Below are positions 1 to 35,719 of a stretch of 36,380 bases of DNA, in pieces. This DNA comes from an uncultured Candidatus Saccharibacteria bacterium (GTDB lineage: Bacteria; Patescibacteriota; Andersenbacteria; UBA10190). The notes under the pieces are model-generated. The model had not been told where the DNA came from. It made no database searches and saw only the letters and a list, made by a program, of their open reading frames with translations. The stretch is taken from contig CAYJWZ010000002.1 in the NCBI GenBank assembly GCA_964374055.1, positions 1-36,380 of the forward strand. Reading direction: 5' to 3'. Numbering within the stretch: the stretch's first letter is position 1; each line of letters opens with the position of its first letter. A program made the translations under genes and the position numbers.

Positions 1-1767
1 TTGTAGGGGAATGACCGTGAGGAGAGGTTGGAGATATTCAGGTGCCGGTGGAACATAGATAACGTCATCAACATGGGCAGCGATGTCGCGATCGCCGGCG
101 GTAGCAATCGCAATCACCGGGCCGCCGCGCGCCTTTATTTCTTGCAGATTGCTCATTACTTTATCGTAAAGGGTACCACGCGGGTTGATGATGACTGAAG
201 GTGTATTTTTGTCAACAAGCGCGATTGGCCCATGCTTCATCTCGGCGGCGGGGTAGCCTTCAGCATGAATATAGCTGACTTCTTTTAATTTCAGGGCGCC
301 TTCCATGGCGATGGGGTAGTGATAGCCGCGGCCTAAATAGAGCATGGTTTGGGCAGCTTTATATTTAGTGGCCAGCTGTTTTATTTTTTCGTCGAGAGCC
401 AGTGTGGTTTTGATATGTCGGGGAAGCTCCAGTAATTCAGTGTACATTCTTGTGGCGGCGGCGGCACTGAGGTGGTGCAGCCGCCCGAGGTATAAAGTGA
501 GGAGCAGTAACGTAGTAACCTGGGCGGTAAAGGCCTTGGTAGAAGCAACACCTAGTTCCGGGCCGGCGTGTAAATAGATACCGCCATCAACTTCGCGGGC
601 AATGGAGCTGCCGACAACGTTAACCAGGCCAAGTGTAGGCAGGCCGCGGCGCTTGGCTTCGCGGATGGCGGCCAGTGTATCGGCCGTTTCGCCAGACTGG
701 CTAATGCAGGCGAGTAGGGTGTTGGTTTCAAACGGGGCGTGACGATAGCGCAGTTCACTGGCGTATTCGACTTCGACGGGCAGACCGGTTAGTTCTTCGA
801 TGAGATATTCACCAAGCAGGGCGGCATAATAACTGGTGCCGCAGGCGGTGAAGATGAGGCGTTTCGCAGAGCGCAGTTTATCTTCAGAAATATTTAGCCC
901 GCCAAACTTTGGCATGTTTTTTACTTCGTCCCACCGGCCCCGCAACACGTTTTGCACCGTTTCCGGCTGCTCGTACATTTCTTTTTGCATGTAGTGTTGG
1001 AAGTGGCCGAGGTCGGCTGCCATGGCGTGACTAATGGTCTCAATATGCGGGGTAACGTGACCGTTCGTGGCGTGATGAATAGTGAAGCCATCGCGGGTGA
1101 GCATGGCAATTTCGCTGTCGTTGAGGTAGACAACTTTTTTGGTGGTGGCAGGTAACCCGGCCTGTCCGGCAGGCAGGGCCGCGGTGTCGCTGGCCAGAAA
1201 ATGTTCATGATCGCCAATGCCAATCAGGAGCGGGCTGCCCAGGCGAGCGCCAATAAGCATGTCGGGGTGTTGGCGACTAACGATAGCCAGGCCGTAGGTG
1301 CCTTTGAGGAGGCGCAGGGTGGCCTCAATTGCTTTTAGTAGGTCATTATATTTTTTGAGATACAGGCCGAGTAATTGGGCAATTACTTCGGTATCAGTTT
1401 GGCTACGAAACGTCAGGCCTTTGGCTTCCAGCTTAGCTTTGATTTCGGCGTAGTTTTCGATGACGCCGTTATGGACAACGGCGATGGTGTTATCGCGATC
1501 GGTATGAGGGTGAGTATTGGCGACGGTGGGTGGGCCGTGGGTAGCCCAGCGGGTGTGAGCAATCCCGAGTGTGCCCGCGGCTGGAAAGTGGCTAACGGTT
1601 CGCTCAAGCGCTTCAACCCGGCCCACTCGTTTGCGTAACTCGAGTCGTCCTTCTTCCACCGTAACCAGGCCGGCACTGTCGTAGCCGCGGTATTCTAATT
1701 GTTTCAACCCAGCTACGAGGAAGGGCTGAGCCGGGCGTGAGCCAATATAGCCAACAATGCCGCACAT
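1..1767 (-). CDS. glmS: glutamine--fructose-6-phosphate aminotransferase (isomerizing); C-terminal ~20 codons cut off by the window edge
   Basis: Absent from the supplied ORF track because it has no stop in the window. Reverse-strand translation from ATG (1767-1765) gives MCGIVGYIGSRPAQPFLVAGLKQLEYRGYDSAG, then AHTRWATHG, VVHNGVIENY, FLASD, YMQKEMYEQPE, FTACGTSYYA, ISQSGETADT, GVASTKAF, MEGALKLKEVSYIHAEGYPAAEMKHGPIAL, and ends LLTVIPLQ at nt 1. The stretches I translated (1..1200 and 1441..1767) are open and in one phase. Confidence 0.95.
   Translation of the reverse strand, partial: MCGIVGYIGSRPAQPFLVAGLKQLEYRGYDSAGLVTVEEGRLELRKRVGRVEALERTVSHFPAAGTLGIAHTRWATHGPPTVANTHPHTDRDNTIAVVHNGVIENYAEIKAKLEAKGLTFRSQTDTEVIAQLLGLYLKKYNDLLKAIEATLRLLKGTYGLAIVSRQHPDMLIGARLGSPLLIGIGDHEHFLASDTAALPAGQAGLPATTKKVVYLNDSEIAMLTRDGFTIHHATNGHVTPHIETISHAMAADLGHFQHYMQKEMYEQPETVQNVLRGRWDEVKNMPKFGGLNISEDKLRSAKRLIFTACGTSYYAALLGEYLIEELTGLPVEVEYASELRYRHAPFETNTLLACISQSGETADTLAAIREAKRRGLPTLGLVNVVGSSIAREVDGGIYLHAGPELGVASTKAFTAQVTTLLLLTLYLGRLHHLSAAAATRMYTELLELPRHIKTTLALDEKIKQLATKYKAAQTMLYLGRGYHYPIAMEGALKLKEVSYIHAEGYPAAEMKHGPIALVDKNTPSVIINPRGTLYDKVMSNLQEIKARGGPVIAIATAGDRDIAAHVDDVIYVPPAPEYLQPLLTVIPLQ
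1156..1177. repeat. P1 palindrome copy inside glmS, in frame (LPAGQAG)
   Basis: Minus-strand reading ctg cct gcc gga cag gcc ggg. It sits between FLASDTAA and LPATTKKVVYL. Confidence 0.85.
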
Positions 1768-1802: not shown

Positions 1803-2813
1803 ATGTCTATGATTATTGTGACCGGGGGGGCGGGGTTGATTGGGAGTGCTTTGGTGTGGGCATTGAATAAGCGTGGCCGAACGGACTTGTTAGTTGTCGA
1901 TGATGTTGATCATCTAGAGAAAAAAAGAAATTTGCAGCCGCTCAAGTATGAGAAACAGGTTGGTATTAAGGAGTTTCGGGAAGAGTTGTTGGGAGGCCGA
2001 GTTAAGGCCGAAGCAATTCTGCACATGGGAGCGATCTCCTCGACATTTGAGAAAAATTGGGAGCGGTTGCAGGATTTAAATGTTTCGTATACGCAGGCTG
2101 TTATTCAGTGGGCGGTGAAAAATACTATCCGGTGTGTGTATGCCTCAAGCGCGGCAACGTATGGCGATGGGGTAAACGGTTATAGTGATGACCATGCTCT
2201 CTTTGATAAATTGCAACCGCTTAATTTGTATGGGAAATCGAAGTTAGCAGTTGATATGTGGGCACGTGATAATGGCTACCTAGAAGATGCAGTGGGGCTG
2301 CGCTATTTTAATGTGTTCGGGCCGAACGAGTATCACAAAGGTGAGATGCGCAGTGTGGTGACTAAGAAGTTTGACGAGTTACAACAGCACGGATTTATCG
2401 AATTATTTAAATCGAATGACCCGCAGTATGAAGACGGACAGCAGCCGCGCGATTTCGTGTATGTGAAAGATGCCGTGGAGGCTACACTCTTCTTTTTAGA
2501 TAAACCGAAACTGGGCGGCGTATATAACATTGGGACGGGGAAGGCCGAAACGTGGAACACAGTGGCACGGGCGATGTTCACGGCTGTGGGAAAACCAGCG
2601 GACATTCGCTATATTTCGTTGCCGGCGGCGTTGGCCCCACAGTATCAGAATTTTACGCAAGCCGATATTACTAAACTTACGGCGGCGGGATATAGCCGAC
2701 CTTTCATGCCGGTCGCCGCGGCCGTAACCGACTATATTCAACACTACTTGACCATTCGACAGGCTCAGGGTAAACCCACAGATAGACATGATCATAGACA
2801 TCTAGCAGAATAA
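1803..2813 (+). CDS. hldD: ADP-L-glycero-D-manno-heptose-6-epimerase-like SDR (HldD/RfaD family) with a repeat-derived C-terminal tail
   Basis: ORF 1779..2813. The Rossmann start [15 protein letters not shown] is at ATG 1803 (1809 is also possible). Colinear with E. coli HldD as I recall it: [73 protein letters not shown]. Confidence 0.8.
2750..2777 (+). repeat. P2 repeat copy at the 3' end of hldD, encodes (T)IRQAQGKP
   Basis: gaccattcgacaggctcagggtaaaccc; same reading frame as the asnB copy. Confidence 0.85.
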
Positions 2814-4095: not shown

Positions 4096-4115
4096 CCTGC
4101 CTGCCGGCAGGCAAG
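4096..4115. repeat. P1 palindrome copy (19/20 match to CCTGCCTGCCGGCAGGCAGG), intergenic
   Basis: cctgcctgccggcaggcaag read directly. It lies 4 nt upstream of TATACT (4120-4125). Confidence 0.85.
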
Positions 4116-7174: not shown

Positions 7175-7175
7175 T

Positions 7176-9548
7176 ATGTGGCTACGAAGCTGGTGGTGGG
7201 TGGCGGCGGGCGTCGTGCTGCTGGGATTACTACTGGTGCAGTTTGTGCGGGTCAACGAAAAAATATTTGAACAGGTGGCGTATACGGGGCATGCGGGGGA
7301 GCTCATTGGGGCGAAGATGGTTGGACAGACCTTTGTGGCCCCGGGAAATTATTTGTCGGGGGTGGCGGTGCAATTTGGGACGTATTCAGGCCGAAATAAT
7401 ACTCGGCCGGTGCAGTTTGGTTTGCGGGAATGGGGGAGTGCGGAGGATCTGCGAATAGCTAGGGTTATGCCGGCGGAGCTGGGCGATAATCAGCCGTATC
7501 GCTTTGATTTTGATCCAATAGCTGATTCAGCGGGCACAACCTATTTCTTTTATGTAACGTCTCCCGAAAGTACGCAGGGGAATGCAGTGACAGTCGGGAT
7601 TGATAACCGAGATCCGTATCCATCTGGCACAGCGTTTATTGGAGACGCAAAAGCAGTGGCGAAGTCGGGTAAGCCAGTGACCGATCTTGCATTCGCTTTG
7701 TATCAAGCGGTCCCGGTATCTGCGGCAGCTTGGCATTGGCTTATATCGTGGTGGCATAATTTCACCTTCGATCGGGCTTGGTTGCCAGGAGTATTGGGCG
7801 CGGTGGTGGTGACGCTGGTGTGGTGTTGGGCGGATCGTATTAAAACGCGCCGGGCTACTTTGGGTACGCTTGGTGTTTTATTTATCGCGGCATTGCTCTG
7901 GCGATGGTGGTATGCGCGGGAATTGCCGCTTACTAATGATGAAGGAAACTATTTGTATGATGCGTGGACATTGTTACATGGGAAGCTGGCCGGAGGCGAT
8001 GGTTATGTAAAGGCGCCATTGTTTATTGCGTGGATTGCGCTCTGGCAGTTGGTGGCCGGGCATACGGTGCTGGCGGGCCGAATGTCGTCGGTTGTTATTA
8101 GTTCACTGACGCTGTGGCCGGTGTATGTGTTAGCGGTATCTTTGTGGAATCGCCGGACCGGTTTAGTAGCGGCTGCTTTGTGGGCAGTTACTGGTGTGGC
8201 CGTGGTGTTTGGAATTTATGTACATACCCAGCCAGTAGCTCTGTTTTTCGCGGTGGCTGGAATTGCCTTATTAGCTCACACAGTGCGGCACAATACGAGA
8301 GCATGGCGCTTCGTGGCGGCTGGTGTGTTACTTGGACTAGGCGTAGCCTCGCGTAAAAGTGTGCTGGCGGTTGGCTTGGTGCCGCTCATTATGCTGCTGA
8401 TACCTCAATTCCACCCGTCGGGTGGAATTGAGGGTTATACGCGGAAGGTAAAGCAATTGGCGTGGGTTGGGTTGGGGTTTGTTGTGGTTATCGCATTGTT
8501 TTTGCTGGCGGCGCATAGCATGTACGGGACGATGGGTGTGCGGGAAGCGATTGGTATCGGGTCGGCGGAAGATAGTATTAATACTGACCCGGCCCAAGCC
8601 GAACAAGTACGGGCGTACTCGATTCGGGGGATGACGCCATTTTTCCGGGAATCATTGCCGCTTATTTTGTTATCGCTGATTGGTTTGGGTGTGGCTGGTG
8701 AACGTTGGGCGCGGCGCTGGGTGCAACCGGTGGTCGCAAAACTTGCTTGGCTGTTACCAGCCGCTATCTTCTACTGGGCGTGGTGGTTTTTCTTTGAGTA
8801 TGAAGGCGCGGTTTTTCATCGGTTTGGAATTCTCGAATTATGGTATATATTTCCAGCGGTTTTGTTGCTGCTTGCGGTATGGCCCTTCGACCCGCCTATG
8901 CCAAGGCTACGGCGGGCAGGCTCACTTCTAGGAACGTATGTGGTGGTTCCGCTGTGGGTTTTTGGCTTGGTAATTTTTTACACTAACTGGATTAAATTTC
9001 ACGCCAATTACATTGCCGAATTTATTCCGCCGCTGGTAGTGTTGTCGGCCTATGGGGCGGTTGCACTGCGTGATCGTTTGCCACGGTATCTATGTGAAGC
9101 AGTTTGGCTGGTCGTGATAGGGGCGATCGTCGTAACGGGGTATGTGACGTTTGTTTTTGAGCATACCGGAACGTTTCAACAGGAGGCGGTGGCGGAGGCA
9201 GCCGCCTGGGCTAAAGAAAATATTCCAGCTGACCAGGCTATTTTCACCGGGGCGGCAGTTGTACCGTACGTTTCCGGTCAGCATGTGGCACTCGACATTG
9301 CCCATCCCCGCTGGTATGCCTATGAATTTACCCGGAAAGACCCAGTGCGTTTAAACACGTTCTTACCATCAGCTGAAAAAATGCTTGAAGCCTTTCGTAA
9401 AAGCGAATGGGTGCTGATGGAGCAGCAAACTGGCTTTTCCTTCTTAATGGAATACAGCGAAATTGAAAAATCCATTAATGAAGATTTTCAAGCGGTGCAT
9501 GTGGTAGAGAACGGCTCGAACACACTGACGTTCTATCGGCGTCAATAG
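7176..9548 (+). CDS. GT-C fold glycosyltransferase (PMT/ArnT, PMT_2-like) with an N-terminal extracytoplasmic module
   Basis: ORF 7119..9548. ATG 7176 follows the upstream TAA (7172-7174) and gives the anchor MWLRSWWWVAAGVVLLGLLLV. A soluble module of about 110 aa (7320..7646) comes next, then many TM helices with the first-loop motif LTNDEGNYLYDAW. Confidence 0.75.
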   Translation: MWLRSWWWVAAGVVLLGLLLVQFVRVNEKIFEQVAYTGHAGELIGAKMVGQTFVAPGNYLSGVAVQFGTYSGRNNTRPVQFGLREWGSAEDLRIARVMPAELGDNQPYRFDFDPIADSAGTTYFFYVTSPESTQGNAVTVGIDNRDPYPSGTAFIGDAKAVAKSGKPVTDLAFALYQAVPVSAAAWHWLISWWHNFTFDRAWLPGVLGAVVVTLVWCWADRIKTRRATLGTLGVLFIAALLWRWWYARELPLTNDEGNYLYDAWTLLHGKLAGGDGYVKAPLFIAWIALWQLVAGHTVLAGRMSSVVISSLTLWPVYVLAVSLWNRRTGLVAAALWAVTGVAVVFGIYVHTQPVALFFAVAGIALLAHTVRHNTRAWRFVAAGVLLGLGVASRKSVLAVGLVPLIMLLIPQFHPSGGIEGYTRKVKQLAWVGLGFVVVIALFLLAAHSMYGTMGVREAIGIGSAEDSINTDPAQAEQVRAYSIRGMTPFFRESLPLILLSLIGLGVAGERWARRWVQPVVAKLAWLLPAAIFYWAWWFFFEYEGAVFHRFGILELWYIFPAVLLLLAVWPFDPPMPRLRRAGSLLGTYVVVPLWVFGLVIFYTNWIKFHANYIAEFIPPLVVLSAYGAVALRDRLPRYLCEAVWLVVIGAIVVTGYVTFVFEHTGTFQQEAVAEAAAWAKENIPADQAIFTGAAVVPYVSGQHVALDIAHPRWYAYEFTRKDPVRLNTFLPSAEKMLEAFRKSEWVLMEQQTGFSFLMEYSEIEKSINEDFQAVHVVENGSNTLTFYRRQ
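8403..8433. repeat. P3 hairpin: perfect 14-bp stem with 3-nt loop, in frame inside a CDS (encodes PQFHPSGGIEG)
   Basis: cctcaattccaccc-gtc-gggtggaattgagg read directly. It shares the core ATTCCACCC-N3-GGGTGGAAT with the hairpin at 35720..35750. Confidence 0.9.
8891..8916. repeat. P4 repeat: CCGCC-N14-GGCGG inverted repeat inside a CDS
   Basis: cccgcc-tatgccaaggctac-ggcggg. It has the same architecture as 19145..19170, with 9/14 loop identity. Confidence 0.6.
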
Positions 9549-12262: not shown

Positions 12263-12345
12263 AGCATCAAGAGTATAGTTTAACCCTCGCTAACTGTAAA
12301 AAAGCGTGTGCTTTTCAGGGCGAGAGGGTTCTTTTCCCCTTCACT

Positions 12346-12353
12346 AAGGGAGG
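12346..12353 (+). promoter_or_regulatory. Shine-Dalgarno AAGGGAGG, 6 nt before ATG 12360
   Basis: Read directly. Most neighbouring genes show no comparable SD. Confidence 0.6.
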
Positions 12354-12359
12354 TTTCCG

Positions 12360-13163
12360 ATGGTTTCGGACTTACAACGACTCACCTTTGTCCAAAAAGC
12401 CCTTCGCAGCGCCGCCGAAACGGCTACTACCACAAAGCTGGTGGCGGCCAAGACCCATTGGCACTACCTGGTAGAGAACGGTGTTATCGTGGCTCCGGCA
12501 GAGGCCAAGGCAGAAGGAATTGATTTTCGCCTCTTGCAAAGTGCAAAGGGCACTAACCAACCTCCGGCGGGTCCGCCTCTTCTGATCATCCCGCTCTACG
12601 AAGAAGATCAAGCAATCTCGGTAGCGCTGTTACCCTTGATAAGTAAGCAGCGGGTAACTGCGATGTTTCGCGGAGCTTGTAACACTATCTTCATGTGGCC
12701 CACTCGTGACCAAGAATCAGAGTTTGTCCGCGGAACGACTTTGATCCATGAGGCTGGGCATGCTCACAAGGCATTCGTGGAGAAACGGCTTTTTAGGGAG
12801 TTAGTTGGACGCGGTCCCCGCCCCGAGTGGCTTCTCCGAGAAGAAGCCGAGCTCAATCTTCTGACTGCTCGTCTGTGGAAGGAAAAGGGCGGTGCGGCTT
12901 ATGGTGCGCTTCTAGAGCAGGCTGTGCAGCAGCTCGCGCCCCATCTTATTGAACCCTCTTACGCTGTTTCTCCACCACTTCCCGATTGGTTGCGTACCAT
13001 GGATCAGATCTTTGGGCCCATTCCGCCGAGCGAAGAGGGTAATCGATGGGGGCACTTCTGGATTTACGCTCACTTTGAATATCTGGAACGATCTCCATGG
13101 AGTACTTTTCACCGTGATTGCGTAGACCTGATGCGGACGATCTACGCTCATAACCAGGTTTAG
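12360..13163 (+). CDS. hypothetical protein with an HExxH motif (LIHEAGHAHK); possible zinc metallopeptidase-like ORFan
   Basis: 267-aa ORF with a strong SD and its own terminator. Codon usage differs from neighbours (AAG 8 : AAA 2; ATC, CTC and TTC favoured). The HEAGH motif is the only recognisable feature. Confidence 0.6.
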   Translation: MVSDLQRLTFVQKALRSAAETATTTKLVAAKTHWHYLVENGVIVAPAEAKAEGIDFRLLQSAKGTNQPPAGPPLLIIPLYEEDQAISVALLPLISKQRVTAMFRGACNTIFMWPTRDQESEFVRGTTLIHEAGHAHKAFVEKRLFRELVGRGPRPEWLLREEAELNLLTARLWKEKGGAAYGALLEQAVQQLAPHLIEPSYAVSPPLPDWLRTMDQIFGPIPPSEEGNRWGHFWIYAHFEYLERSPWSTFHRDCVDLMRTIYAHNQV

Positions 13164-13177
13164 GTTAGTCTTCGTGT

Positions 13178-13209
13178 CCCCGGATATTTCCATCCGGGGC
13201 TTTTTATTT
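13178..13209 (+). terminator. rho-independent terminator
   Basis: ccccggat-atttcc-atccgggg (8-bp stem) followed by ctttttattt, 15 nt after the stop of the 12360 ORF. Confidence 0.7.
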
Positions 13210-13224
13210 GTACTGTTGCTTTGT

Positions 13225-15135
13225 ATGTGTGGCATTGTTGGTATTTGGAATAAACATCCGCCCCGCCAGCTGGCGGGTGGCGGACCAGTTGACCAGGGTT
13301 TGCTGGTTCGTATGCGGGATACGATGACCTATCGAGGGCCGGATGGGGCGGGGATATATCTTGATGGGGGAGTGGGCCTAGGGCACCGGCGGTTGAAAAT
13401 CATCGATCTGACCGAAGCCGGGGCGCAGCCAATGACCCTTCGACAAGCTCAGGGTAAACCCGATGGCAGGTACACAATTGTCTTTAATGGTGAGATTTAT
13501 AATTTTCGGGAACTGAAAGAGCAGTACTTGAAATCGTGGAATTTTAGATCGACCTCGGATACAGAAGTATTACTGTATTTATTGGCCGATAAAGGGGTAG
13601 AAGCTTTATCGTTATTGCGCGGCATGTTTGCGTTTGCTTTGTGGGATACGAAAAAACAAGAGTTATTGCTGGTGCGCGATCCGTTTGGTAAGAAACCGCT
13701 CTATTATGCTGTTGTTAACGGAACAGTTTTGTTTGCTTCAGAGATTAAAGCGTTGTTGGAATATCCGGGACTGTCGAAAGAGCTCGACCGGGCAGCCGTA
13801 GCCAAATACTTTTTATATGAATATGTCCCAGCGCCGGCCACACCGTATGCGGCTATTCGCCAAGTGCCGATGGGGAGCTATGTGCGCTTTACTCAACAGG
13901 GCGAAGAGGTAAAACAGTGGTGGCAGCTTGATTTTGCGCCCAAGCAGAGTTTGTCTTTTGGAGAAGCGAAAGATCAGCTTGATTATTTATTGCAACAATC
14001 AGTTAGCCGACGCATGGTGGCGGACCTGCCTGCCGGACAGGCAGGTGTGCCGGTGGGTGTGTTTTTGAGTGGCGGATTGGATTCAACGACAATTGCTTAT
14101 TATATGCGCCGCGTCAGTACGGAGAAGCTGCATTCCTTTTCGGTTTCGTTTCAGGAGCCAACATTTGATGAGTCGTCGTATGCGAAGAGAGCAGCGGAGG
14201 CGCTCGGAACGGAGCATCATGATATTCCGTTTACGGTGGAAACTTTTCACGCGGCACTTGGCGACATTACTTCACGTTTGGATGCGCCGCTGGCTGACGC
14301 GTCACTCTTGCCAACCTATGCTGTTAGTAAATTAGCGCGGGACCATGTGACGGTGGTGCTGGATGGTGATGGTAGTGATGAATTGCTGGGGGGGTATGGG
14401 TTGTTTCAAGCGGCTGGGGTAGCTGATGCATTACGGTGGTTACCGGCTGGTGTGATAGCCGGGCTGCAGCAACTGGCGGCGGAGCTGCCGACCAGATATC
14501 ATAATTTTTCGTTTGATTTTAAAGTGAAATCTTTTTTGCGGGGTTTAGCCTATGAGCGTTGGCCGCGGAACCAGGTATGGCTAGGGTCATTTTCGCCGAC
14601 AGAGCTGACAGAGTTACTGACTCCCGAATGGCAATGTGACGTTTTGGGTGATTTGATCGAGCCGAAAGAAATGCGGCGCTTGGGCACGTTTGATGCGGTC
14701 TCGGCTTTATTGCTACGCGAGTACTTACACAATGACTTATTGGTGAAGTTGGATCGAGCAGCCATGCTGGTAGCGTTGGAAGGGCGGACGCCGTTTCTGG
14801 ATGCTGACTTGGCGCAGTTTGTAGCCCAGTTGCCGGTAGCGATGAAGCGAAATAAGTTTTTGTTGAAGCAGGTGATGCGCGATAAAATTCCAGATGCGAT
14901 TATTGATCGGCCAAAGAAAGGGTTTGGTATTCCGCTCGGCTGGTGGCTCAAAGGGCCGTTGCATGGTTGGGCACAAGAAGTTTTGAGCGAAGATAAGTTG
15001 CAACGTGGGGGAGTGATTAATCCCGCAGTTGCCCAGCGTTTACTTCAAGAACATCGAGCCGGTAAAGCCGATCATCGCAAGAAACTATGGACGCTACTGA
15101 CGTGGCAGCTGTGGGTGGATCATTTTTTGGCGTAA
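13225..15135 (+). CDS. asnB: asparagine synthase (glutamine-hydrolysing)-like amidotransferase
   Basis: ORF 13174..15135. The functional start must be ATG 13225 so that Cys is residue 2 (MCGIVGIWN, Ntn amidotransferase). Motifs: HRRL.IIDL, IVFNGEIYNF, SDTEVLL, and the PP-loop VGVFLSGGLDSTTIA. The 13174 extension overlaps the upstream terminator. Confidence 0.9.
   Translation: MCGIVGIWNKHPPRQLAGGGPVDQGLLVRMRDTMTYRGPDGAGIYLDGGVGLGHRRLKIIDLTEAGAQPMTLRQAQGKPDGRYTIVFNGEIYNFRELKEQYLKSWNFRSTSDTEVLLYLLADKGVEALSLLRGMFAFALWDTKKQELLLVRDPFGKKPLYYAVVNGTVLFASEIKALLEYPGLSKELDRAAVAKYFLYEYVPAPATPYAAIRQVPMGSYVRFTQQGEEVKQWWQLDFAPKQSLSFGEAKDQLDYLLQQSVSRRMVADLPAGQAGVPVGVFLSGGLDSTTIAYYMRRVSTEKLHSFSVSFQEPTFDESSYAKRAAEALGTEHHDIPFTVETFHAALGDITSRLDAPLADASLLPTYAVSKLARDHVTVVLDGDGSDELLGGYGLFQAAGVADALRWLPAGVIAGLQQLAAELPTRYHNFSFDFKVKSFLRGLAYERWPRNQVWLGSFSPTELTELLTPEWQCDVLGDLIEPKEMRRLGTFDAVSALLLREYLHNDLLVKLDRAAMLVALEGRTPFLDADLAQFVAQLPVAMKRNKFLLKQVMRDKIPDAIIDRPKKGFGIPLGWWLKGPLHGWAQEVLSEDKLQRGGVINPAVAQRLLQEHRAGKADHRKKLWTLLTWQLWVDHFLA
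13258..13283. repeat. P5 palindrome (centre CCGCCAGCTGGCGG) in frame in asnB
   Basis: ccgccccgccagctggcgggtggcgg read directly; it encodes PPRQLAGG. It shares CCCCGNCAGCTGGCGGG with 30846..30863. Confidence 0.75.
13434..13461 (+). repeat. P2 repeat copy (26/28 identical to 2750..2777), in frame in asnB, encodes (T)LRQAQGKP
   Basis: gacccttcgacaagctcagggtaaaccc versus gaccattcgacaggctcagggtaaaccc. Confidence 0.85.
14025..14045. repeat. P1 palindrome copy inside asnB, in frame (LPAGQAG)
   Basis: cctgcctgccggacaggcagg; codons ctg cct gcc gga cag gca ggt, immediately before the PP-loop VPVGVFLSGGLDS. Confidence 0.9.
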
Positions 15136-16566: not shown

Positions 16567-17988
16567 ATGTCGAAACGAGTAGTTGTCTGGAGTTTATTCG
16601 TTTTATTTACGCTAACCCAAGTGGCGTATTTGCATCGGGTGCCGGGTTTGATGGGCGATGAGGCCTCCGAGGGAGAAAATGTGTATGAACTGTGGTCGGG
16701 CCAAAAGGCGTGGTTGGAAGGCGAGCGGTCGTATATTGGGCCGGCGATTGATTATGTGCGCATGCCGTTCTTTTTGGTAATTAAACATCCAGTGTTGGCG
16801 TTGCGCAGCGTGACTTTGTTGGCAGCGATTATCTCCTTTTGGTTAGCGATTGTTGTTTTTCGGCGCCTATTCGGCGAACAGGCCGGGTTGCTGGCGGCTA
16901 CAGCTGTACTCTTCTCGCCTGTTTTCATGCTGGAGCAACGGATGGCGTGGGCGATTTCACTCTCGCCATTTTTTGCCTTGCTGACCTTGTATTTTATGCA
17001 ACACCCTCGCTGGTGGGCCCCCGCATTCGCGGGGCTCGCCAGCGGGCTCGGCTTGAGTAATCATATTTTATTTTTGCCAGTGGTGGCTGGTCTTATGGGC
17101 GGAGGGTTGTTTTATTGGTTGAGTGGCCCCGTAAAATCCCGCCGCTGGCGGGATCACGGGGCGACCGCGCTGCTTTGCGCGGTCGGTTTTGCAGCGGCGT
17201 TCGCAACACAGGCTTGGCAGTTGTGGACATCGCCGGCCGGCGATCAAGGTGAGCCGGGCGCTGTGGCTGAATTATTTTGGGATCGTCTACAAGGTCTGCC
17301 GCAATTGATGCCTTTGGTTGTTTCCGGTTCATCGTATGTGGCGCGGTATACGGGCGTGGAGTTTAGTTTGAGTTGGCAATATGGAATTACGGCGCTTGTT
17401 TTGGGTTTAGTGATCGTGGCCGTACTATGGGGGACTAGGGCGGCGCGGCTGTGGTTTTTAGCGACGGTGATCCATCTTAGTGTGTTATTAGTTGTGATTG
17501 ATCGGTTCTCACTGCGCTATTTTGTGCCTACGATGTTGGCTGTGTGGGTGTTGGTCGGGGTAGGGGTGGGAATACTGTGGGAAAAATTTGGCCCCGTAAA
17601 ACTTCGTCACGGGGCTGCGCTGGCGCTGGCTGGCGTTTTATCGCTTTGGGTGGCCTTGGTTGTGTTAATACCATTTTTGCAGACAGGTGGGAGCACGAAT
17701 GATTTTTCGTTGGCCAATCGGACGGATAGTGCCTCGGCGCTGGTTGATGTGCGGCCATTGGTAACCTGTTTGCGCGCCCGCCTGCCGGACGGGCAGGGAC
17801 AGGGTACGGTTACGTCCGAGAGTGTGCATATTTTTAATCGCTTATGGTTTTTGCGCCACTACGAGTCGGAACTTCAGGTTGTGCGGGAGGGTGAGGATTC
17901 GCAGTGGTTGGTGAATTATCGCCTTAGTGACCAACCGGCTGGTGATTTATGCCCGCAACTTACGTACTTTCGGGTAGAGAAACGCTAG
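16567..17988 (+). CDS. GT-C-like polytopic membrane glycosyltransferase (distant PMT_2/ArnT-like)
   Basis: 473 aa with about 11 hydrophobic helices and an acidic first-loop motif PGLMGDEASEGENVY. Weaker family signal than the paralog group. Confidence 0.6.
   Translation: MSKRVVVWSLFVLFTLTQVAYLHRVPGLMGDEASEGENVYELWSGQKAWLEGERSYIGPAIDYVRMPFFLVIKHPVLALRSVTLLAAIISFWLAIVVFRRLFGEQAGLLAATAVLFSPVFMLEQRMAWAISLSPFFALLTLYFMQHPRWWAPAFAGLASGLGLSNHILFLPVVAGLMGGGLFYWLSGPVKSRRWRDHGATALLCAVGFAAAFATQAWQLWTSPAGDQGEPGAVAELFWDRLQGLPQLMPLVVSGSSYVARYTGVEFSLSWQYGITALVLGLVIVAVLWGTRAARLWFLATVIHLSVLLVVIDRFSLRYFVPTMLAVWVLVGVGVGILWEKFGPVKLRHGAALALAGVLSLWVALVVLIPFLQTGGSTNDFSLANRTDSASALVDVRPLVTCLRARLPDGQGQGTVTSESVHIFNRLWFLRHYESELQVVREGEDSQWLVNYRLSDQPAGDLCPQLTYFRVEKR
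17781..17804. repeat. decayed P1-like copy in frame (LPDGQGQG)
   Basis: cctgccggacgggcagggacaggg. It resembles the P1 half-sites but is degenerate. Confidence 0.4.
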
Positions 17989-19975: not shown

Positions 19976-21928
19976 ATGACGTGGTGGCAGAAGTATCGAT
20001 GGGACATTATGTGGGCGGCGATTATTTTTGTGGCGGCAGCCGTGCCACGACTATTAGATTTGGGAATCTTTTTAACGGCCGATGAGAAGAATTGGATGAT
20101 GCGCGGCTATGAATTTGCGCGGGCGTTTAAGGATGGCCGGTTCAATGACATGCTGCAAACGACGCATCCGGGCGTAACGGTGCTGTGGCTTACCGGCATA
20201 GTTATTTACGCCACACTGTTTTTAAAGCATACGTTGTTTACTAACGACAGTTTACCGATATTTATTTACTCGACACAATTTGCCGTGGCGTTGTTAAACA
20301 CGGCACTCGTGCCGGTGATTTATTTGCTGTTACAGCGCTTGTTTAAAAACCGAGCTATTTCCGTAACCGCGGCGCTGCTGATCGCTTGGAACCCGTGGCT
20401 GGTTGGCTATTCGCGGGTGGTGCACATTGATGCGGTGGTGACCGGCTTCATGTTGGCAGCGGCGCTAAGCTTATTAATTTGGGCACAGGAGGGCTACCCA
20501 CGGCGCTGGCTGGTTTTTTCGGCAGTACTGGCCGCGCTGGCAGTTTTAAGTAAAGCGCCGGCGATATTTTTAATTCCCTATTTTTGGTTAGTTGTACTGG
20601 TGTTTGGTGTTCAACGCTGGCGCCGGCGATTACTGGAGTTTGTTTGGTGGCTGTTGATTATAATTGTTTTGTTTGTGTTGCTATGGCCAGCGATGCTGTG
20701 GGTGCCGGATAAAACTGGTAACGCTCGGGTGTTGAAGCGCGATTACATGGTGGCCGCCACCACACCGCATGATATCAGTGAAAGTTTTAGTACTAACCTG
20801 TGGCACTACCCAGCGACACTGATTACGCGGACGGAGCCGGCGGTACTGCTTCTTTGTTTGGTGCTGGTTGGTTTGTTAATTAGACCCCTACCCCGGCGCT
20901 TCGCGCCGGTACTCCCCCTTCGTAAGGGGGAGAAAAAGATCGAATGGCTACTAGCGGCATATGTTTTTTTCTTTATTGTCATGATGACCATCGGGGCAAA
21001 GAAGGGCGATCGGTATATTTTGCCGATTGCGCCGGTGATGGATATAGTAGCGGTGTTGGGATTAGCCGCGTTGCTCCGCGGCCGAAAATTTATTATAGCA
21101 GCGAGTATTTTAGTTCTCGTTAGCGCGGGCACAGTTATTTACCATCATCCTTATGCTTTAGCATATAGTAACCCATTTTTTCCCAATAATTTGAGCCAAG
21201 AGTTGGGGTGGGGTGAGGGTTTGGAGCAGGTAGGAGCGTGGCTTAACCAACAGGCAGGGAAAAGTAAAGTGGCGTCGTGGTATCCGGACGAGCTGGGGTA
21301 TTTTACAGAGGCGGCTGTGGTACACATCAATGCCCATGAACAGCCGGCCGTGCGCTATATCGTTTTATATCACAATATGTTTGGGCGCCCGGTCGAGCAT
21401 CCGGCTAATAATTTTATTGATGAATATTATAAGAAGTGGAAACCGGTGTTTGTGGCTCACGTTGCTCAAAAAGAATACGCCTGGGTGTATGAGAAGCCGG
21501 TGTTTGATAAGAATGTTGGTGAACTGACATCGGGCCGGGTAGTTAGGCAGACCATTTCAGTACGCGCGCCGCAGTTTATCGGGCTGGAGGTGTTAGCGGC
21601 CACCTATACCGGGCGGGCCACAGAAGGCGAATTGGTCGTGTCGATGAAAGACCTACATGAGTGGCGAGTGCCAGTAAGTAAGCTTAACGACACCGGTTGG
21701 ACACAGCTACTTTTACCAAGGCCGGTTGAGCTCGCCGGACAGGAGTTGACAGTCACTTTTTCAGGTGCGGGAACGAACTTCGGCAATGCACCAACTATTC
21801 GTTCGGGAACGTCTGGATTAGCTATCCGGCAGCTTTTTTCCCGGCCGGCCGGTCAGGCAGGGGTGAACGGCGTGATCGCGAACGAGTACGAGACCAAACT
21901 ATTGGAACAATCAGCAGGCCGAGAGTAA
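19976..21928 (+). CDS. GT-C fold glycosyltransferase (PMT_2/ArnT-like), paralog group 1, with a C-terminal module
   Basis: LLDLGIFLTADEKNWMMRG, HPGVTVLWL, KKGDRYILP, PFFPNNLSQELGWGEGLEQVGAWLN, YIVLYHNM, YAWVYE. The C-terminal module is at about 21539..21838. The last 29 codons start with a P1-like repeat and overlap the convergent gene. Confidence 0.8.
   Translation: MTWWQKYRWDIMWAAIIFVAAAVPRLLDLGIFLTADEKNWMMRGYEFARAFKDGRFNDMLQTTHPGVTVLWLTGIVIYATLFLKHTLFTNDSLPIFIYSTQFAVALLNTALVPVIYLLLQRLFKNRAISVTAALLIAWNPWLVGYSRVVHIDAVVTGFMLAAALSLLIWAQEGYPRRWLVFSAVLAALAVLSKAPAIFLIPYFWLVVLVFGVQRWRRRLLEFVWWLLIIIVLFVLLWPAMLWVPDKTGNARVLKRDYMVAATTPHDISESFSTNLWHYPATLITRTEPAVLLLCLVLVGLLIRPLPRRFAPVLPLRKGEKKIEWLLAAYVFFFIVMMTIGAKKGDRYILPIAPVMDIVAVLGLAALLRGRKFIIAASILVLVSAGTVIYHHPYALAYSNPFFPNNLSQELGWGEGLEQVGAWLNQQAGKSKVASWYPDELGYFTEAAVVHINAHEQPAVRYIVLYHNMFGRPVEHPANNFIDEYYKKWKPVFVAHVAQKEYAWVYEKPVFDKNVGELTSGRVVRQTISVRAPQFIGLEVLAATYTGRATEGELVVSMKDLHEWRVPVSKLNDTGWTQLLLPRPVELAGQELTVTFSGAGTNFGNAPTIRSGTSGLAIRQLFSRPAGQAGVNGVIANEYETKLLEQSAGRE
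20893..20909. repeat. perfect hairpin CCGGCGC-TTC-GCGCCGG in frame in a CDS
   Basis: Read directly. It is part of the extra loop segment PRRFAPVLPLRKGEKK, which is absent from the two paralogs. Confidence 0.8.
20912..20932. repeat. perfect hairpin CTCCCCC-TTCGTAA-GGGGGAG in frame in a CDS
   Basis: Read directly. It lies 2 nt after the previous hairpin and encodes LPLRKGE. Confidence 0.8.
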
Positions 21929-24728
21929 TCGGCAGGCTCACTCCGGTCAGCAGCTTAGCTTGCCTGATAGCGGGGGAGTCGTAGCGAAACGAGACGGTGT
22001 GTTGACCGGCGCCGACACGGGCGGCTTTAAAGACAGAATTGGCCACGTAATAGGGGGCCGGTTGATTATCAACAAACGTGCGCCACTGCGGGGTGGTGCT
22101 ATCGGTTACCACCAGCCAGGCTTCGCTCGGCGTGGTGACGGCGACCTCAACTTCAGTATCCTGATAGCGGGTGACGTTCACGGTAGCGCTCAATAGTTTT
22201 GTGTTACGGGCGGGGAGATCGTCGGGTAACTGATTGCCGCTGATGTAGACCACCTGTTTTGGATCATAGGCCGGGTCAGCGATGGCGACACGGGTTTCAT
22301 CGGCCGCGGCGTTGGGGATAGCGTTTCGGACCAGATAGGCCTTGGGATAGGCTTGCGGGTTGTGATAGAGGCGAAAGGAACCGTTGCTGGTGGTTTGTTC
22401 GCCGATGAGGGTGAAGCCGAGACTGGGCAAGCGGTCCTCGGTTTCTTTGGAAACAAACTGGGTGAGGTGGGTAATACTGGCACTGTCGAATAAGGCGCGG
22501 TGGCGTTGTAAAAAGTGACGGCCGTCGCCATCGATTAGATTGTCCTGATCATTTTGAAAGAAATCCTCAATGAATTCACGATACGGTTTAATGGAGAGAG
22601 CACCAATCCAGCGGGCACTGGAGGCGCCGGCGATGACATTGAGATGGCGACTGAGCGTACCGACTTCCGGATTGAGCCCGGCATCGGTGGCGGTACTACC
22701 TTCTTGCATAACGAGACGGACGTCTTTGCGCGAACGGGCCAGTTGCTCGGCTGTCGGGTTGGGTACGCGGATCAAATAGGCGCGGTTGTCGCCGGTGGCT
22801 GGTATGAGGTAGGGGTTAATGCGACTGTGCGGGGCGCTTAGGGCTATGACGTAGTGGCGGTTAGTTTCGAGGACCTGGTTAAAGCAGACGGGCGTATAGC
22901 CTTGATGATTAACGTTTGAGGGGCGTACGATGACATGCTCGCGGGCGGCGCCAGTTATTGTTTCTTTAAGGCTGACGGTAATGGCCTCATCGCTGGCGAT
23001 TTCAGCCGCATACAGCATGATACGGAGACAGTTGACGGAAGGTATAGTTGGGGTAAGAGGCTGCATAATAGTGAAATCGCGGGTGATGGCGTCAGCCGAG
23101 CGGATGTGTTTAATAAGCGCTTCAGTGTAAATCATGTCACGGCCGTAGAGGCGCGGCGGCACACCTGCCTGTCCGGTAGGCAGGCGTTCGGGCGAAATGG
23201 CAGTTCGTAACTGGTCAATCCATGTTGGTTCAGCCAGGGCAGTGACTCGGGGAATCAGAGGATTATAATTCCAGCCAAAAGCAAGCAGCGTAAGAGCGCT
23301 GAGGCTGACCAATCCGTAGGTGGCGACTGCGCGGACACGTGAAAAGCGCTGTAAAAAGAGATAGAGCGGAAAAACAAACAGAGCGATAAGACCTAAGATC
23401 CATTCGTAATTATAGGTGTTAATCAGGTGGTCAAGCTGTGCCAGGTAACGCGGCTCAACTTGCAGAGTGATAAAAAATGGGGCGAAGAGTGCCGCCACGC
23501 AAATCGGGCTTAAGGCCAGTGCCAGCAACCGTTGCCAGCGGGGGGTGGTGGAGAGAGAGCGGAGATCATCGAGGCCGACGGCGGCCAGGAGGCTGATGCC
23601 AACATTGAAAAAGAAGACAAAACGACCGGGCGTGGTGAGTGTGCTCAAAATTCTTTGTTCAACAAGGTAACGATAGAGTGGGGAGTATTGGCCGAGAGCA
23701 AAAACAAACGTCACTACCAGTAAACTTATTCCGAAGAGGCGCAGGGAGCGCTGGCGGCGCGTTTGCCAGGTGAGGAGCGCGCTACTGGCCAGCAGGAGCG
23801 GTAGTACGCCGGTGTAGGCCGCTAATTCCTGAAAGTTTTTGGCACCCCAGTAATTGGTTTTATCACCAAAAAATGTCGGCAGAATAAGCGTGATGGCATG
23901 ACTTGGCGGATAGCTGAACTCAAATAATTCAATGGGCGATAGATCCTCGCCCCGCTCGGTCAACGGCTGGAACTCCCGCAGCGGTAGAATCGCAAAAGCC
24001 GAAAGACCGAGGAAAAGCAGGGCAGCCAGCAAGACAAGGCTGGTTGGTTTGAGTAGTTTCATTTTACGCCGGGGTAACAGAATTCCCCAGCGGAATAAAC
24101 CGTAGAGAGTAGCGATGATGAGGGTGTAGAGCACAATTTGGGGTTGGCCACCGAGGGCGGTCGCGGCAGCTACGAGGGCCACCGCGGCGCTGCGGGGAAG
24201 AGTCGGCTTGATAAGAAGTGCTTCAATAGCCAGTAGCAACAGGGGGAGCAGTGTGCTGGCGGTATAAAAGTTAACGTGATTCAAGTGGCCGATCATGAAG
24301 CCGGAGAAAGCAAACACGATGGCACCCAGCGCCGCCGCCGCGGGCGAAAGCCGGCGGTAGCGCAGGAAGGCAAACATGCTGACTATGCCAACCAGGAAAT
24401 AAGCGATGACGGAGATCTGCAGGAGCGTGATGGGGTGAATACTGAGGGCGCGCAAGAGGAGGTGGAGCGGGGTGAAGAAGCCGAGTTGGCCCCAAGCAAT
24501 GACGGGCTGACCAAAACCGAGGAGATTGCTCCAGACCGGCAGGGTGAAGTTGGCCTGGGCAGCGGCGTAGATCACCTCAAGCGGATAATAGATAATTTTT
24601 AAGTCGTCGAGGAAATAAAAGTATTGCCCGCTGATGGTGCGAATAAAAAAGATGAACCAGGTCATGAGAACGAGGCCGAGGCCAAGAGCATGCGGCTTTA
24701 ACTGCTTAGTTATTTGTCGGATTGACAT
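21822..24728 (-). CDS. YfhO-like GT-C polytopic membrane protein (968 aa) with a large extracytoplasmic region
   Basis: First loop YFYFLDDLKIIYYPLE...VWSNLLGFGQP, about 13 N-terminal TM helices, a roughly 440-aa soluble region, a final TM VSLPITLGLLIVPIVW and a basic tail. It overlaps the upstream small gene by 19 nt and the convergent 19976 gene by 107 nt. Confidence 0.7.
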   Translation of the reverse strand: MSIRQITKQLKPHALGLGLVLMTWFIFFIRTISGQYFYFLDDLKIIYYPLEVIYAAAQANFTLPVWSNLLGFGQPVIAWGQLGFFTPLHLLLRALSIHPITLLQISVIAYFLVGIVSMFAFLRYRRLSPAAAALGAIVFAFSGFMIGHLNHVNFYTASTLLPLLLLAIEALLIKPTLPRSAAVALVAAATALGGQPQIVLYTLIIATLYGLFRWGILLPRRKMKLLKPTSLVLLAALLFLGLSAFAILPLREFQPLTERGEDLSPIELFEFSYPPSHAITLILPTFFGDKTNYWGAKNFQELAAYTGVLPLLLASSALLTWQTRRQRSLRLFGISLLVVTFVFALGQYSPLYRYLVEQRILSTLTTPGRFVFFFNVGISLLAAVGLDDLRSLSTTPRWQRLLALALSPICVAALFAPFFITLQVEPRYLAQLDHLINTYNYEWILGLIALFVFPLYLFLQRFSRVRAVATYGLVSLSALTLLAFGWNYNPLIPRVTALAEPTWIDQLRTAISPERLPTGQAGVPPRLYGRDMIYTEALIKHIRSADAITRDFTIMQPLTPTIPSVNCLRIMLYAAEIASDEAITVSLKETITGAAREHVIVRPSNVNHQGYTPVCFNQVLETNRHYVIALSAPHSRINPYLIPATGDNRAYLIRVPNPTAEQLARSRKDVRLVMQEGSTATDAGLNPEVGTLSRHLNVIAGASSARWIGALSIKPYREFIEDFFQNDQDNLIDGDGRHFLQRHRALFDSASITHLTQFVSKETEDRLPSLGFTLIGEQTTSNGSFRLYHNPQAYPKAYLVRNAIPNAAADETRVAIADPAYDPKQVVYISGNQLPDDLPARNTKLLSATVNVTRYQDTEVEVAVTTPSEAWLVVTDSTTPQWRTFVDNQPAPYYVANSVFKAARVGAGQHTVSFRYDSPAIRQAKLLTGVSLPITLGLLIVPIVWSRTRSRSRRSPLPDRPAGKKAAG
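21841..21863. repeat. decayed P1-like copy (PAGQAG) in the convergent overlap zone
   Basis: ccggccggccggtcaggcagggg. Plus-frame codons are ccg gcc ggt cag gca ggg. Confidence 0.55.
23163..23183. repeat. P1 palindrome copy inside a minus-strand CDS, in frame (LPTGQAG)
   Basis: cctgcctgtccggtaggcagg. Minus-strand codons are ctg cct acc gga cag gca ggt (aa 516-522). Confidence 0.9.
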
Positions 24729-34469: not shown

Positions 34470-34489
34470 CCTGCCTGCCGGCAGGCAGG
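34470..34489. repeat. P1 palindrome, perfect 20-nt copy, intergenic
   Basis: cctgcctgccggcaggcagg equals its own reverse complement. Confidence 0.95.
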
Positions 34490-34493
34490 CTAG

Positions 34494-35711: not shown

Positions 35712-35719
35712 GGGTAGTA

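Follow-up and report, generated by a model that had tools for sequence, protein, structure and literature searches.

Three short GC-rich repeats lie in frame within an asnB-like gene of an uncultured Patescibacteria bacterium and are extra DNA relative to its orthologues

Contig CAYJWZ010000002.1 (GenBank assembly GCA_964374055.1) of an uncultured Candidatus Saccharibacteria bacterium, placed by GTDB in the Patescibacteriota (Andersenbacteria; UBA10190), carries an asnB-like gene in which three short repeats, here called P5, P2 and P1, are read in frame. We analysed positions 1 to 36,380 of this single metagenomic contig (the window; 36.4 kb, 51% G+C, approximately 94% coding). Each of the three segments is extra DNA compared with orthologous genes, the same sequences are found in unrelated genes and between genes, and P1 and P5 are hairpin-forming palindromes. 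In the following paragraphs we describe the host gene, the inserts and the other copies, and then discuss how they may have arisen.

The host gene specifies a glutamine-dependent amidotransferase beginning MCGIVGIW at 13225, the nucleophilic Cys of the N-terminal nucleophile (Ntn) domain standing immediately after the initiator Met. Cys2 is conserved in at least 90% of the sequences in a protein alignment of 120 homologues (window protein included) and is invariant in a set of 26; the PP-loop SGGLDS (residues 282-287) is also invariant, and the glutamine-site residues are conserved. The domains recorded are PF00733, PF13522 and PF13537 (Asn_synthase and GATase_6/7), and homologues are annotated as asparagine synthase (glutamine-hydrolysing) of Patescibacteria, many being labelled Candidatus Andersenbacteria. 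Among proteins of known structure it matches 7ylz (TsnB9; 4e-55) and 1ct9 (E. coli AsnB; 4e-43), and Foldseek places its model at TM scores of 0.74-0.82 and 0.60-0.80 to these two, respectively. The ratio of nonsynonymous to synonymous divergence (dN/dS) relative to three relatives is 0.06-0.09, with dS saturated at 1.7-2.2. The dN/dS values, the conserved motifs and the confidently predicted AsnB/TsnB9-like fold show that the gene is functional and under strong purifying selection.

For nucleotide comparison, codon alignments were made between the window and the syntenic loci of its three closest relatives, L001, L002 and L003. The three closest asnB homologues show 78, 76 and 72% protein identity, and the window protein stands alone in its cluster. 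L001 comes from an independent sample (SRR22388048) and L002 from another. The first-pass annotation had located all three repeats, in frame, in this one open reading frame (ORF), and we find them there, read as PPRQLAGGG, (T)LRQAQGKP and LPAGQAG, with P2 starting at 13433 (Table 1).

At site 1, in the loop that follows the first strand of the Ntn domain, P5 reads PPRQLAGGG; as DNA it is predicted to form a hairpin of -12.2 kcal/mol (z -3.0). L002 possesses at this position the canonical P5, a 16-nt perfect palindrome (TCCGCCAGCTGGCGGA), and is 12 nt shorter than the window, the window copy differing from this canonical palindrome by a duplication in each arm (+5 and +7 nt). No palindrome is present in L001 and L003, which are 18 nt shorter than the window. 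The loop from W8 to V22 comprises 15 residues in the window and 7-11 in every other full-length homologue of the alignment.

Site 2 shows a net gain of 18 nt (13438-13455, encoding LRQAQG) relative to all three relatives. Similarity between the repeat copies runs a few bases into both flanks, and the event reads as approximately 22 nt in and 4 nt out. The segment P69 to D80 is 6 residues long in 116 of the 120 homologues and 12 residues long in the window only; the insert is missing in all 119 others. P2 is not a palindrome: it does not fold into a stable hairpin (-2.6 kcal/mol, z -0.6) and matches one arm of a larger inverted repeat, described below.

The clearest of the filled and empty pairs is found at site 3, where L002 and L003 have the empty GAT GTG CCG and the window GA[C CTG CCT GCC GGA CAG GCA GG]T GTG CCG. 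The codon alignment gives the window precisely 21 nt more, placed within an Asp codon, and the target is neither duplicated nor shortened. At the same codon L001 has P1 in decayed form, CCTGCCTGCCGGCAAGGCGGG. The P1 hairpin is the most stable of the three (-14.5 kcal/mol, z -4.9). The D267-V275 junction is contiguous ("DV") in 118 of the 120 homologues, the additional seven residues being present only in the window and in P0002, the homologue nearest to it.

The gaps at sites 2 and 3 are seen also against 7ylz and 1ct9. That the motifs flanking the repeats are normally contiguous in this family thus holds for these two sites, but not for site 1, a naturally variable loop of 7-11 residues. Homologues equally long at all three positions were not found, either among the 120 sequences or in the two PDB relatives; the conclusion that these are insertions therefore stands, and L001-L003 confirm extra DNA at all three sites. 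The inserts are not, as might have been thought, all peculiar to this genome, since a decayed P1 and a canonical P5 occupy the same sites in L001 and L002; the P2 of site 2 is confined to the window.

The AlphaFold (AF2) model of the protein is confident overall (pLDDT 90.6, pTM 0.92), and low confidence is restricted to the three inserts: residues 15-19 and 269-271 fall below a pLDDT of 50, and the mean over block 71-80 is 63. In the model each of the three occupies coil that separates secondary-structure elements. P0004, a natural orthologue possessing none of the inserts, was modelled for comparison; its elements follow one another in the same order and it has no segment of low confidence. 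Relative to it, elements of the window protein are displaced by +6, +6 and +7 residues, with 9 more owing to an ancestral segment that is deleted in the three relatives. The added residues, rich in Pro, Gly, Ala, Gln and Leu, only lengthen surface loops. Site 3 precedes the strand leading to the PP-loop and, from the fold topology, would sit at the strand end far from the ATP site. The ancestral segment (27 nt, 9 residues, QYLKSWNFR; window 13522-13548) is deleted in L001-L003 and kept in the window and in 115 more distant homologues. Private insertions at other positions occur in the Patescibacteria AsnB homologues P0044 (FVRGGNYHSLLPLTKG), P0099, P0103 and P0105 (GGVNFGDLVRG... in the last two), and may be footprints of other repeat families; the ...SLLPLTKGE... 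of P0044 is reminiscent of another repeat-derived peptide.

Table 1. Position and reading of the asnB-like gene, its three inserts and other repeat copies in the window
Feature	Positions	Strand	Remarks
AsnB-like glutamine-dependent amidotransferase gene	13225..15135	+	636 aa; ORF with Met-Cys start; hosts all three inserts
Site 1, P5	13257..13284	+	Expanded palindrome TCCGCC-CCGCC-AGCT-GGCGG-GT-GGCGGA; ccgccccgccagctggcgggtggcgg at 13258-13283, as in the first-pass annotation
Site 2, P2 TGACCCTTCGACAAGCTCAGGGTAAACCC	13433..13461	+	Reads (T)LRQAQGKP between QPM(T) and (K)PDGRYTIVFNGEIYN
Site 3, P1 CCTGCCTGCCGGACAGGCAGG	14025..14045	+	21-nt palindrome; adds LPAGQAG between RRMVAD and VPVGVFLSGGLDS
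P1 in glmS	1157..1177	-	Gene runs off the left window end; reads ...FLASDTAA[LPAGQAG]LPATT...; 6-aa gap exactly there in comparison with E. coli GlmS (4amv)
P1 CCCGCCTGCCGGACGGGCAGG in ORF 16567-17988	17777..17797	+	Reads ARLPDGQ, in an element frame other than that of the asnB copy; the 21-nt insertion splits a Gly codon, site empty in L002 and L003
Degenerate P1 in ORF 19976-21928	21841..21861	+	Reads SRPAGQAG; 7-codon gap in the L003 orthologue
P1 in ORF 21822-24728	23164..23184	-	Reads LPTGQAG; 11-codon gap in the L003 orthologue
Intergenic P1, 20-nt form without central base	4096..4115	.	Lies upstream of where the GT2 gene truly starts
Intergenic P1, perfect 20-nt palindrome	34470..34489	.	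Followed by a second, unrelated palindrome at 34494-34517
Second P2 copy, 93% identical	2749..2777	+	C-terminal tail of HldD-like epimerase, reads IRQAQGKP; tail lies beyond the domain aligning to 1eq2
P2-like CCCTTCGAC...AGGCTCA, interrupted by a CCGCC...GGCGG segment	8883..8927	+	PMT_2 gene 7119-9548
Further hairpin family TACCTCAATTCCACCCGTCGGGTGGAATTGAGGGTTATA, 39-nt unit	8401..8439	+	Inside the PMT_2 gene; net +21 nt (PQFHPSG), approximately 18 nt of target replaced
GGCCCCGTAAAA repeat, then P5-like palindrome CCCGCCGCTGGCGGG	17125..17152	+	Both in window-specific insertions, ORF 16567-17988; second GGCCCCGTAAAA copy at 17590-17601
P5-core copy CCCGACAGCTGGCGGG in ORF 29198-31135	30847..30862	+	Read in another frame (APTAGGG); candidate insertion only

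P1 consists of CCTGCCTGCCGG, a variable central base N and CAGGCAGG; the 20-nt form without the central base is the perfect palindrome CCTGCCTGCCGGCAGGCAGG. The window contains seven copies, five of them intragenic, when none was expected from 100 shuffles. P2 is present in two clear copies (0 expected from shuffles) and the interrupted one at 8883-8927; the 16-nt core of P5 recurs at 30847 (0.02 expected) and, as a variant, at 17138-17152. Every P2 and P5 copy in the window is intragenic. These numbers bear out the suggestion that the three inserts belong to three separate dispersed families. All five coding copies of P1 are seven-codon inserts missing from orthologues or from E. coli GlmS, and AsnB is not special, like inserts being present in glmS and at least four other genes of the window. 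The coincidence of three families in one gene, to which attention had been drawn, is real yet only mildly unexpected: given about a dozen coding copies over 34 kb, the presence of three within the 1.9-kb asnB has a Poisson p of approximately 0.04, and ORF 16567-17988 carries six hairpins.

Insertions are also unevenly distributed among the genomes. In twelve shared genes there are 11 private insertions of at least 3 residues in the window versus 1, 0 and 0 in the three relatives, and 9-10 of the 11 are GC-rich hairpins. Perfect hairpins with a stem of at least 8 bp number 16 in the window versus 1-6 in shuffled sequences. The sole insertion private to a relative, at approximately 12379 in L001 (PMT_2 gene 11921-13378, minus strand), is likewise a hairpin, …GCCCGCCTGAAAAGCGGGC…, read as RLKSGL, which indicates that the process works in sister lineages too, far less often. 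At the 8883-8927 site, L001 has TTTCGGCAAGCTCAAGGTAAACC, read as FGKLKVN, and L002 and L003 are 3-7 codons shorter. The hairpin unit at 8401 has a second, intergenic copy at 35718-35756, the stems of the two differing by compensatory changes. The P1 copies at 23164 and in asnB have the right flank TGTGCCG in common, a hint of target preference, though five sites are too few to tell.

None of the three inserts disrupts the reading frame of asnB. The first-pass annotation had observed this and proposed either purifying selection on the frame or an insertion mechanism biased towards tolerated events. The gene is indeed functional, but its in-frame state is weak evidence of selection on frame, because all six frames of the 21-nt P1 are free of stop codons: an ORF receiving it stays open whatever the phase or orientation, and would acquire a heptapeptide rich in Pro, Gly, Ala, Gln, Leu, Arg and Cys. 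Similarly, the inserts do lie in tolerated loops, but the filter would act on which lengths and positions survive; being in frame is probably for the most part a property of variants able to persist where non-coding DNA is scarce. Copies landing in structured regions would then be removed by selection. P1 has been inserted at two codon phases, in two element frames and in both orientations, and the likeness of LPAGQAG to ARLPDGQ is due to an internal CCTG periodicity rather than to selection on the peptide.

Length and location agree with such a filter. The coding copies of P1 are all of the 21-nt form (5/5) and the intergenic ones of the 20-nt form (2/2; Fisher p = 0.048). Across phyla the 21-nt form is more often found in long open frames than the 20-nt form (29/49 versus 34/130, p = 8e-5), with the limits that ORFs are called only crudely in GC-rich viral contigs and that neither collection is significant alone. 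Hairpin copies are about five-fold denser between genes (3 in approximately 2 kb) than within them (approximately 12 in approximately 34 kb), which fits purifying selection against most coding insertions.

The P1 core is not restricted to this genome. Among GTDB species-representative genomes, at least 119 stretches (L004-L122) contain it exactly, with unrelated flanks, the hosts among the matches listed being Patescibacteria, Bacteroidota, Omnitrophota, Planctomycetota, Gammaproteobacteria, Chloroflexota, Nitrospirota and others; it is also present in cultured Bacteroidota isolates, in one curated complete WWE3 genome, and in 65 viral-contig stretches of IMG/VR (L123-L187), some with 3-6 copies (e.g. 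IMGVR_UViG_3300037242_000417). Reversed P1, a palindrome of equal composition used as a control, gave no matches. The P2 core, CCTTCGACAAGCTCAGGG, was found in at least 120 viral stretches (reversed control, 0); the exact 22-mer of the window P2 gave no match in viral contigs, only the 18-nt core being widespread. In viral contigs this core usually takes the form ...GCCCTTCGACAAGCTCAGGGCGAACGG and in many cases makes up the right arm of a longer, imperfect palindrome (approximately 55 nt), so that the window P2 is a single arm only. The complete palindrome, CCGTTCGTGGTGAGCCTGTCGAACCAT..GCCCTTCGACAAGCTCAGGGCGAACGG, is widespread (L188-L267, e.g. L205, L188, L191, L209 and L213), and L224 has three tandem copies of a 23-nt unit; this palindrome may underlie the recurrent "VSLSNHE...PFDKLRANG" peptides of metagenomic ORFs. 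In 2.5 Mb of loci collected for other purposes, canonical P5 (TCCGCCAGCTGGCGGA) is present seven times and its control not at all; two of the seven lie within 50 nt of P1.

Cross-phylum copies of P1 tend to lie inside short tandem repeats with a period of 7-11 nt (22 of 110 sites versus 5 of 287 control positions, p = 2e-9; they include L005, L009, L041, L061, L070, L080 and L103). Perfect direct repeats of 7-8 nt flank 6 of 194 cross-phylum sites on both sides versus none of 970 controls, and are seen at no site of the window. P1 nested in P1 was observed in L026, L029 and L052. Three candidate explanations for the choice of site or the nature of the element were rejected. P1 does not interrupt functional tRNA genes in the manner of an intron: with the element removed, ARAGORN finds a tRNA in L038 only. 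The copies concerned (L022:4041, L047:2127, L121:5992 and L038:3628) lie in the D-arm of 5′ tRNA-gene fragments, that of L038 being a duplicated 5′ half just upstream of an intact tRNA-Val. Nor is P1 generally targeted to the tips of existing hairpins, as flank pairing averages 0.6 bp with few cases of 5 bp or more. A known RNA family was not found either, Rfam giving no match in the window and, in the other loci, only tRNAs and one Acido-Lenti-1 RNA (RF01687, 49.5 bits; L159:10903-10948), which lies in a viral contig region dense in P1 copies and other hairpins.

As to the surroundings of asnB, the window represents a cell-envelope glycan-biosynthesis cluster with glmS, an HldD-like epimerase, a nucleotidyltransferase, GT2 and GT4 glycosyltransferases, methyltransferases and five PMT_2 (ArnT-like) membrane glycosyltransferase genes; in this setting a WbpS-like sugar amidotransferase role for the AsnB-like protein is plausible. 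A hairpin, CCCCGGATATTTCCATCCGGGG followed by CTTTTTATTT, at 13178-13209 resembles an intrinsic terminator of gene 12360-13163 and lies upstream of the asnB start by about 15 nt, which makes the long ORF that starts with GTG at 13174 an over-extension. The GT2 ORF shows homology to L001 and L003 only from residue 20-21 onwards, and the P1 at 4096..4115 is thus upstream of the gene. Two different perfect palindromes, P1 and then CCTTCTCCCTATCCAGGGAGAAGG, stand back to back between genes at 34470-34517, a mosaic reminiscent of the bacterial interspersed mosaic elements (BIMEs) of enterobacteria. The most heavily colonised gene is ORF 16567-17988, with hairpins or repeats at 17125, 17138, 17162, 17229, 17590 and 17777, three of them in window-specific insertions; the Pfam records of its L002 and L003 orthologues show no match. 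Other perfect palindromes within genes are TCTCTGGCCGGCCGGCCAGAGA (10136-10157, 22 nt, methyltransferase gene), CTCCCCCTTCGTAAGGGGGAG (20912-20932, ORF 19976-21928) and CCGCATCAATTTATTGATGCGG (25718-25739).

We consider it probable (roughly 0.7) that the three segments are independent insertions of dispersed GC-rich repeat families of 16-29 nt that have proliferated in this lineage of Patescibacteria, the asnB inserts being one case of a colonisation of coding DNA across the genome. Insertions would land everywhere in a genome that is about 94% coding, and the survivors would be those whose net length is a multiple of three and which add stop-free DNA coding for loops; the 21-nt P1, open in all six frames, would thereby be pre-adapted. 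Most likely an enzyme encoded elsewhere would copy or transpose the hairpin in single-stranded form, or else copies would be pasted in by a repair or gene-conversion process. Some events would replace a few target bases, and some palindromes would be nested in, or have grown from, earlier ones. The inserts would be tolerated passengers, with no function implied for the host protein. A precedent for such movement exists in repetitive extragenic palindromes (REPs), which are mobilised by REP-associated tyrosine transposases (RAYTs) or IS200-IS605-type HUH transposases that handle single-stranded hairpins without duplication (PMC3733652).

Several observations weigh against this reading. Neither the window nor the syntenic loci contain a transposase or other mobilising gene, and the genes nearest 149 cross-phylum P1 sites include no transposase and share no common Pfam family. 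Polymorphism for insertion or excision was not seen, and movement is deduced solely from filled and empty orthologous sites in genomes that are approximately 75-80% identical in protein. The P2 event in asnB and the 39-nt unit of the PMT_2 gene are not clean insertions and fit repair or conversion equally well; P2, moreover, forms no hairpin, so a single mechanism may fail to cover all families. The indel characters within asnB are phylogenetically conflicting: P1 is common to the window and L001, the P5 core to the window and L002, and the 27-nt deletion to L001-L003, which means that at least one site has been hit twice independently, precisely lost, or exchanged by recombination. The deletion also conflicts with the neighbour-joining tree of asnB, (L003,(window,(L001,L002))), which places L003 outside the window, and the species quartet sites weakly favour a further arrangement, (window, L001)|(L002, L003), by 59:40:36. 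Timing the insertions by rooting the four genomes was accordingly dropped, as the quartet is weak, the asnB tree differs and the indels disagree. Finally, the asnB P1 of the window still has the consensus sequence although dS to L001 exceeds 2, which would require recent independent insertion, homogenisation, or selection on the palindrome.

A purely repair-based origin, in which the mending of breaks copies a short template by ectopic gene conversion, GC-rich sequence prone to form hairpins is preferentially captured, and palindromes grow by arm duplication or template switching, seems to us unlikely as a full account, but has a good deal in its favour. Target bases were replaced at the asnB P2 (22 in, 4 out) and at the PMT_2 unit (+21 net, approximately 18 nt replaced), no event examined shows a target-site duplication, the window P5 is a symmetric arm duplication (+5, +7 nt) of the form in L002, and no transposase is nearby in the window, in the syntenic loci or beside the 149 P1 sites. 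Short common flanks (TGAC...CCC for P2, ...TGTGCCG for two copies of P1) could be microhomology. P1 in asnB and in ORF 16567-17988, however, entered as blocks of exactly 21 nt, nothing being lost and no microhomology being evident, and repair filler would not easily account for the same 20-nt core between unrelated flanks in many phyla and in phage contigs. Selection for functional nucleic-acid motifs, such as mRNA hairpins affecting translation or decay, protein-binding or uptake sites, or methylation and restriction sites with a central CCGG or CAGCTG, which would have spread through their benefit and not through selfish mobility, we regard as improbable. It would account for the consensus state of the asnB P1 in the face of saturated synonymous divergence from L001, for the compensatory stem changes between the 8401 and 35718 hairpins and for the conservation of exact cores across phyla, and HIP1 of cyanobacteria offers the example of a selected, over-represented palindrome with no known function (PMC5861425). 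Yet sister genomes of the same gene order are without almost all copies, which are thus dispensable; the copies in L001 and at 21841 are decaying; positions with respect to gene starts and ends are inconsistent, with no T-run after the intergenic copies; no Rfam family matches; and the copies arise as insertions, unlike the substitution-born HIP1 or uptake sequences.

The notion that selection acts on the peptides, LPxGQAG and LRQAQGKP being convergent short modules such as linkers or processing and interaction motifs, is largely refuted. Four coding P1 copies do read LP(A/T/D)GQ(A)G, and both clear P2 copies (L/I)RQAQGKP. The identity, though, is at the nucleotide level, synonymous positions included; the same sequences are intergenic at 4096 and 34470 and lie in non-coding DNA of other phyla; two element frames give similar peptides through the CCTG periodicity; the P2-like copy is read as FGKLKVN in L001; and in the model low confidence and lack of structure are confined to the inserted residues. 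An assembly or sequencing artefact, or a chimeric contig, is effectively excluded. The data come from a single metagenomic contig, and palindromes are difficult for polymerases and assemblers, but all coding copies are in frame and vary in sequence, a decayed P1 stands at the same codon in the independent sample of L001, a canonical P5 is present at site 1 in the separate sample of L002, and the same cores are found in cultured isolates and a curated complete genome.

Several known systems resemble the insertions that we favour. Elhai et al. (2008; Genome Res 18:1484; cited in PMC5861425 and PMC2884548) are said to have described small dispersed repeats (SDRs) of Nostocaceae that are about 20-27 nt long, capable of forming hairpins, judged mobile from filled and empty sites, without an encoded function or a known mobilising enzyme, and reportedly associated with short tandem (heptamer) repeats. 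The repeats in the window, set beside SDRs by description only, are alike in size, hairpins and filled and empty orthologous sites, and cross-phylum P1 is likewise accompanied by tandem repeats. SDRs are reported from one cyanobacterial family, whereas here Patescibacteria, many other phyla and viral contigs are involved, and routine in-frame colonisation of conserved enzymes dominates. GC-rich palindromic mini-elements are known in organelles as the GC clusters of yeast mitochondria, the organelle palindromes of Volvox and Chlamydomonas, and the double-hairpin elements of Allomyces. Like the present repeats, they are very short hairpins in compact, AT-richer genomes, nested and sometimes located in coding or rRNA genes; unlike them, they belong to other genomes and sequences, and some require translational bypass or sit in variable rRNA regions, whereas the inserts here are simply translated. 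Transposable elements of the miniature inverted-repeat type (typically 70-300 bp) have terminal inverted repeats and target-site duplications, in contrast to exact 21-nt gains without duplication, and HIP1 and DNA uptake sequences arise in place without change of length, whereas the gaps in our orthologues equal the length of the element.

Palindromes in ORFs have precedents in REPs (PMC3733652) and in the in-frame Rickettsia palindromic elements (RPEs; PMC10969869). RPEs too are palindromes inserted in frame into unrelated functional housekeeping genes, at sites compatible with the fold, in a small reduced genome (PMC10969869, PMC3733652), and in-frame insertion at tolerated positions of functional ORFs is what we observe. 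They are, however, approximately 100-150 bp long, encode a conserved peptide of 30-50 residues and are restricted to Rickettsia, whereas net insertions here are 12-21 nt, the elements 16-29 nt (4-7 codons), the families several and unrelated, and the cores cross-phylum. REPs or palindromic units (GTAG- and CGTC-tagged, BIMEs, RAYT-mobilised) are imperfect GC-rich palindromes of 20-40 nt in many copies, some inside ORFs, with intergenic mosaics like that at 34470-34517 (PMC3733652). P1 (20-21 nt; seven copies in 36 kb) and P5 (16-28 nt) form significant hairpins at or below the lower size limit of REPs, and P2 forms none. REP families are specific to species or genera, whereas identical cores occur here across phyla; five of the seven P1 copies and all P2 and P5 copies of the window are intragenic rather than extragenic; neither a GTAG nor a CGTC tag is found in P1, P2, P5 or their flanks; and no RAYT (Y1 HUH transposase) is encoded in the window, the syntenic loci or the nearest genes of the 149 P1 sites. 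Given the lack of tag, terminal inverted repeats and target-site duplication, the wrong size and the wrong lineage, the repeats fit no named family, though they work like RPEs, REPs and SDRs. They are best read as miniature repeats of the REP/RPE/SDR kind that would survive in loop-coding DNA.

In-frame colonisation of genes is already known for the approximately 150-bp RPEs and some REPs; here the unit is 4-7 codons. What is unexpected is the cross-phylum, phage-borne spread of exact cores. We tentatively raise the further idea, on balance doubtful, that the cores of P1, P5 and P2 are widely distributed "nano" mobile elements of 16-21 nt, which would be the smallest mobile DNA known, moved by a widespread hairpin-handling activity, with phages as plausible carriers, and an overlooked source of loop insertions in proteins; the cores are shared by Patescibacteria, Bacteroidota, Planctomycetota, Omnitrophota, Proteobacteria, Chloroflexota and phage contigs. 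Literature searches by sequence, by peptide, and for palindromic insertions in the candidate phyla radiation (CPR) gave no relevant paper. Some mechanism that mobilises or generates them is needed to account for exact cores with unrelated flanks and neighbours across phyla and viral contigs; none was found in the literature searched, and the cores could serve as probes for phylogenetic profiling against candidate enzymes. Peptides such as LPAGQAG and LRQAQGK in metagenomic proteins are footprints of DNA repeats, not protein motifs. A single family with a 21-nt "coding-safe" form and a 20-nt intergenic form would be a clear example of selection fitting a selfish repeat to a nearly all-coding genome, and the recent indels that conserved enzymes of this CPR lineage have acquired are for the most part not random but copies of a few tiny repeats, a main source of new loop residues.

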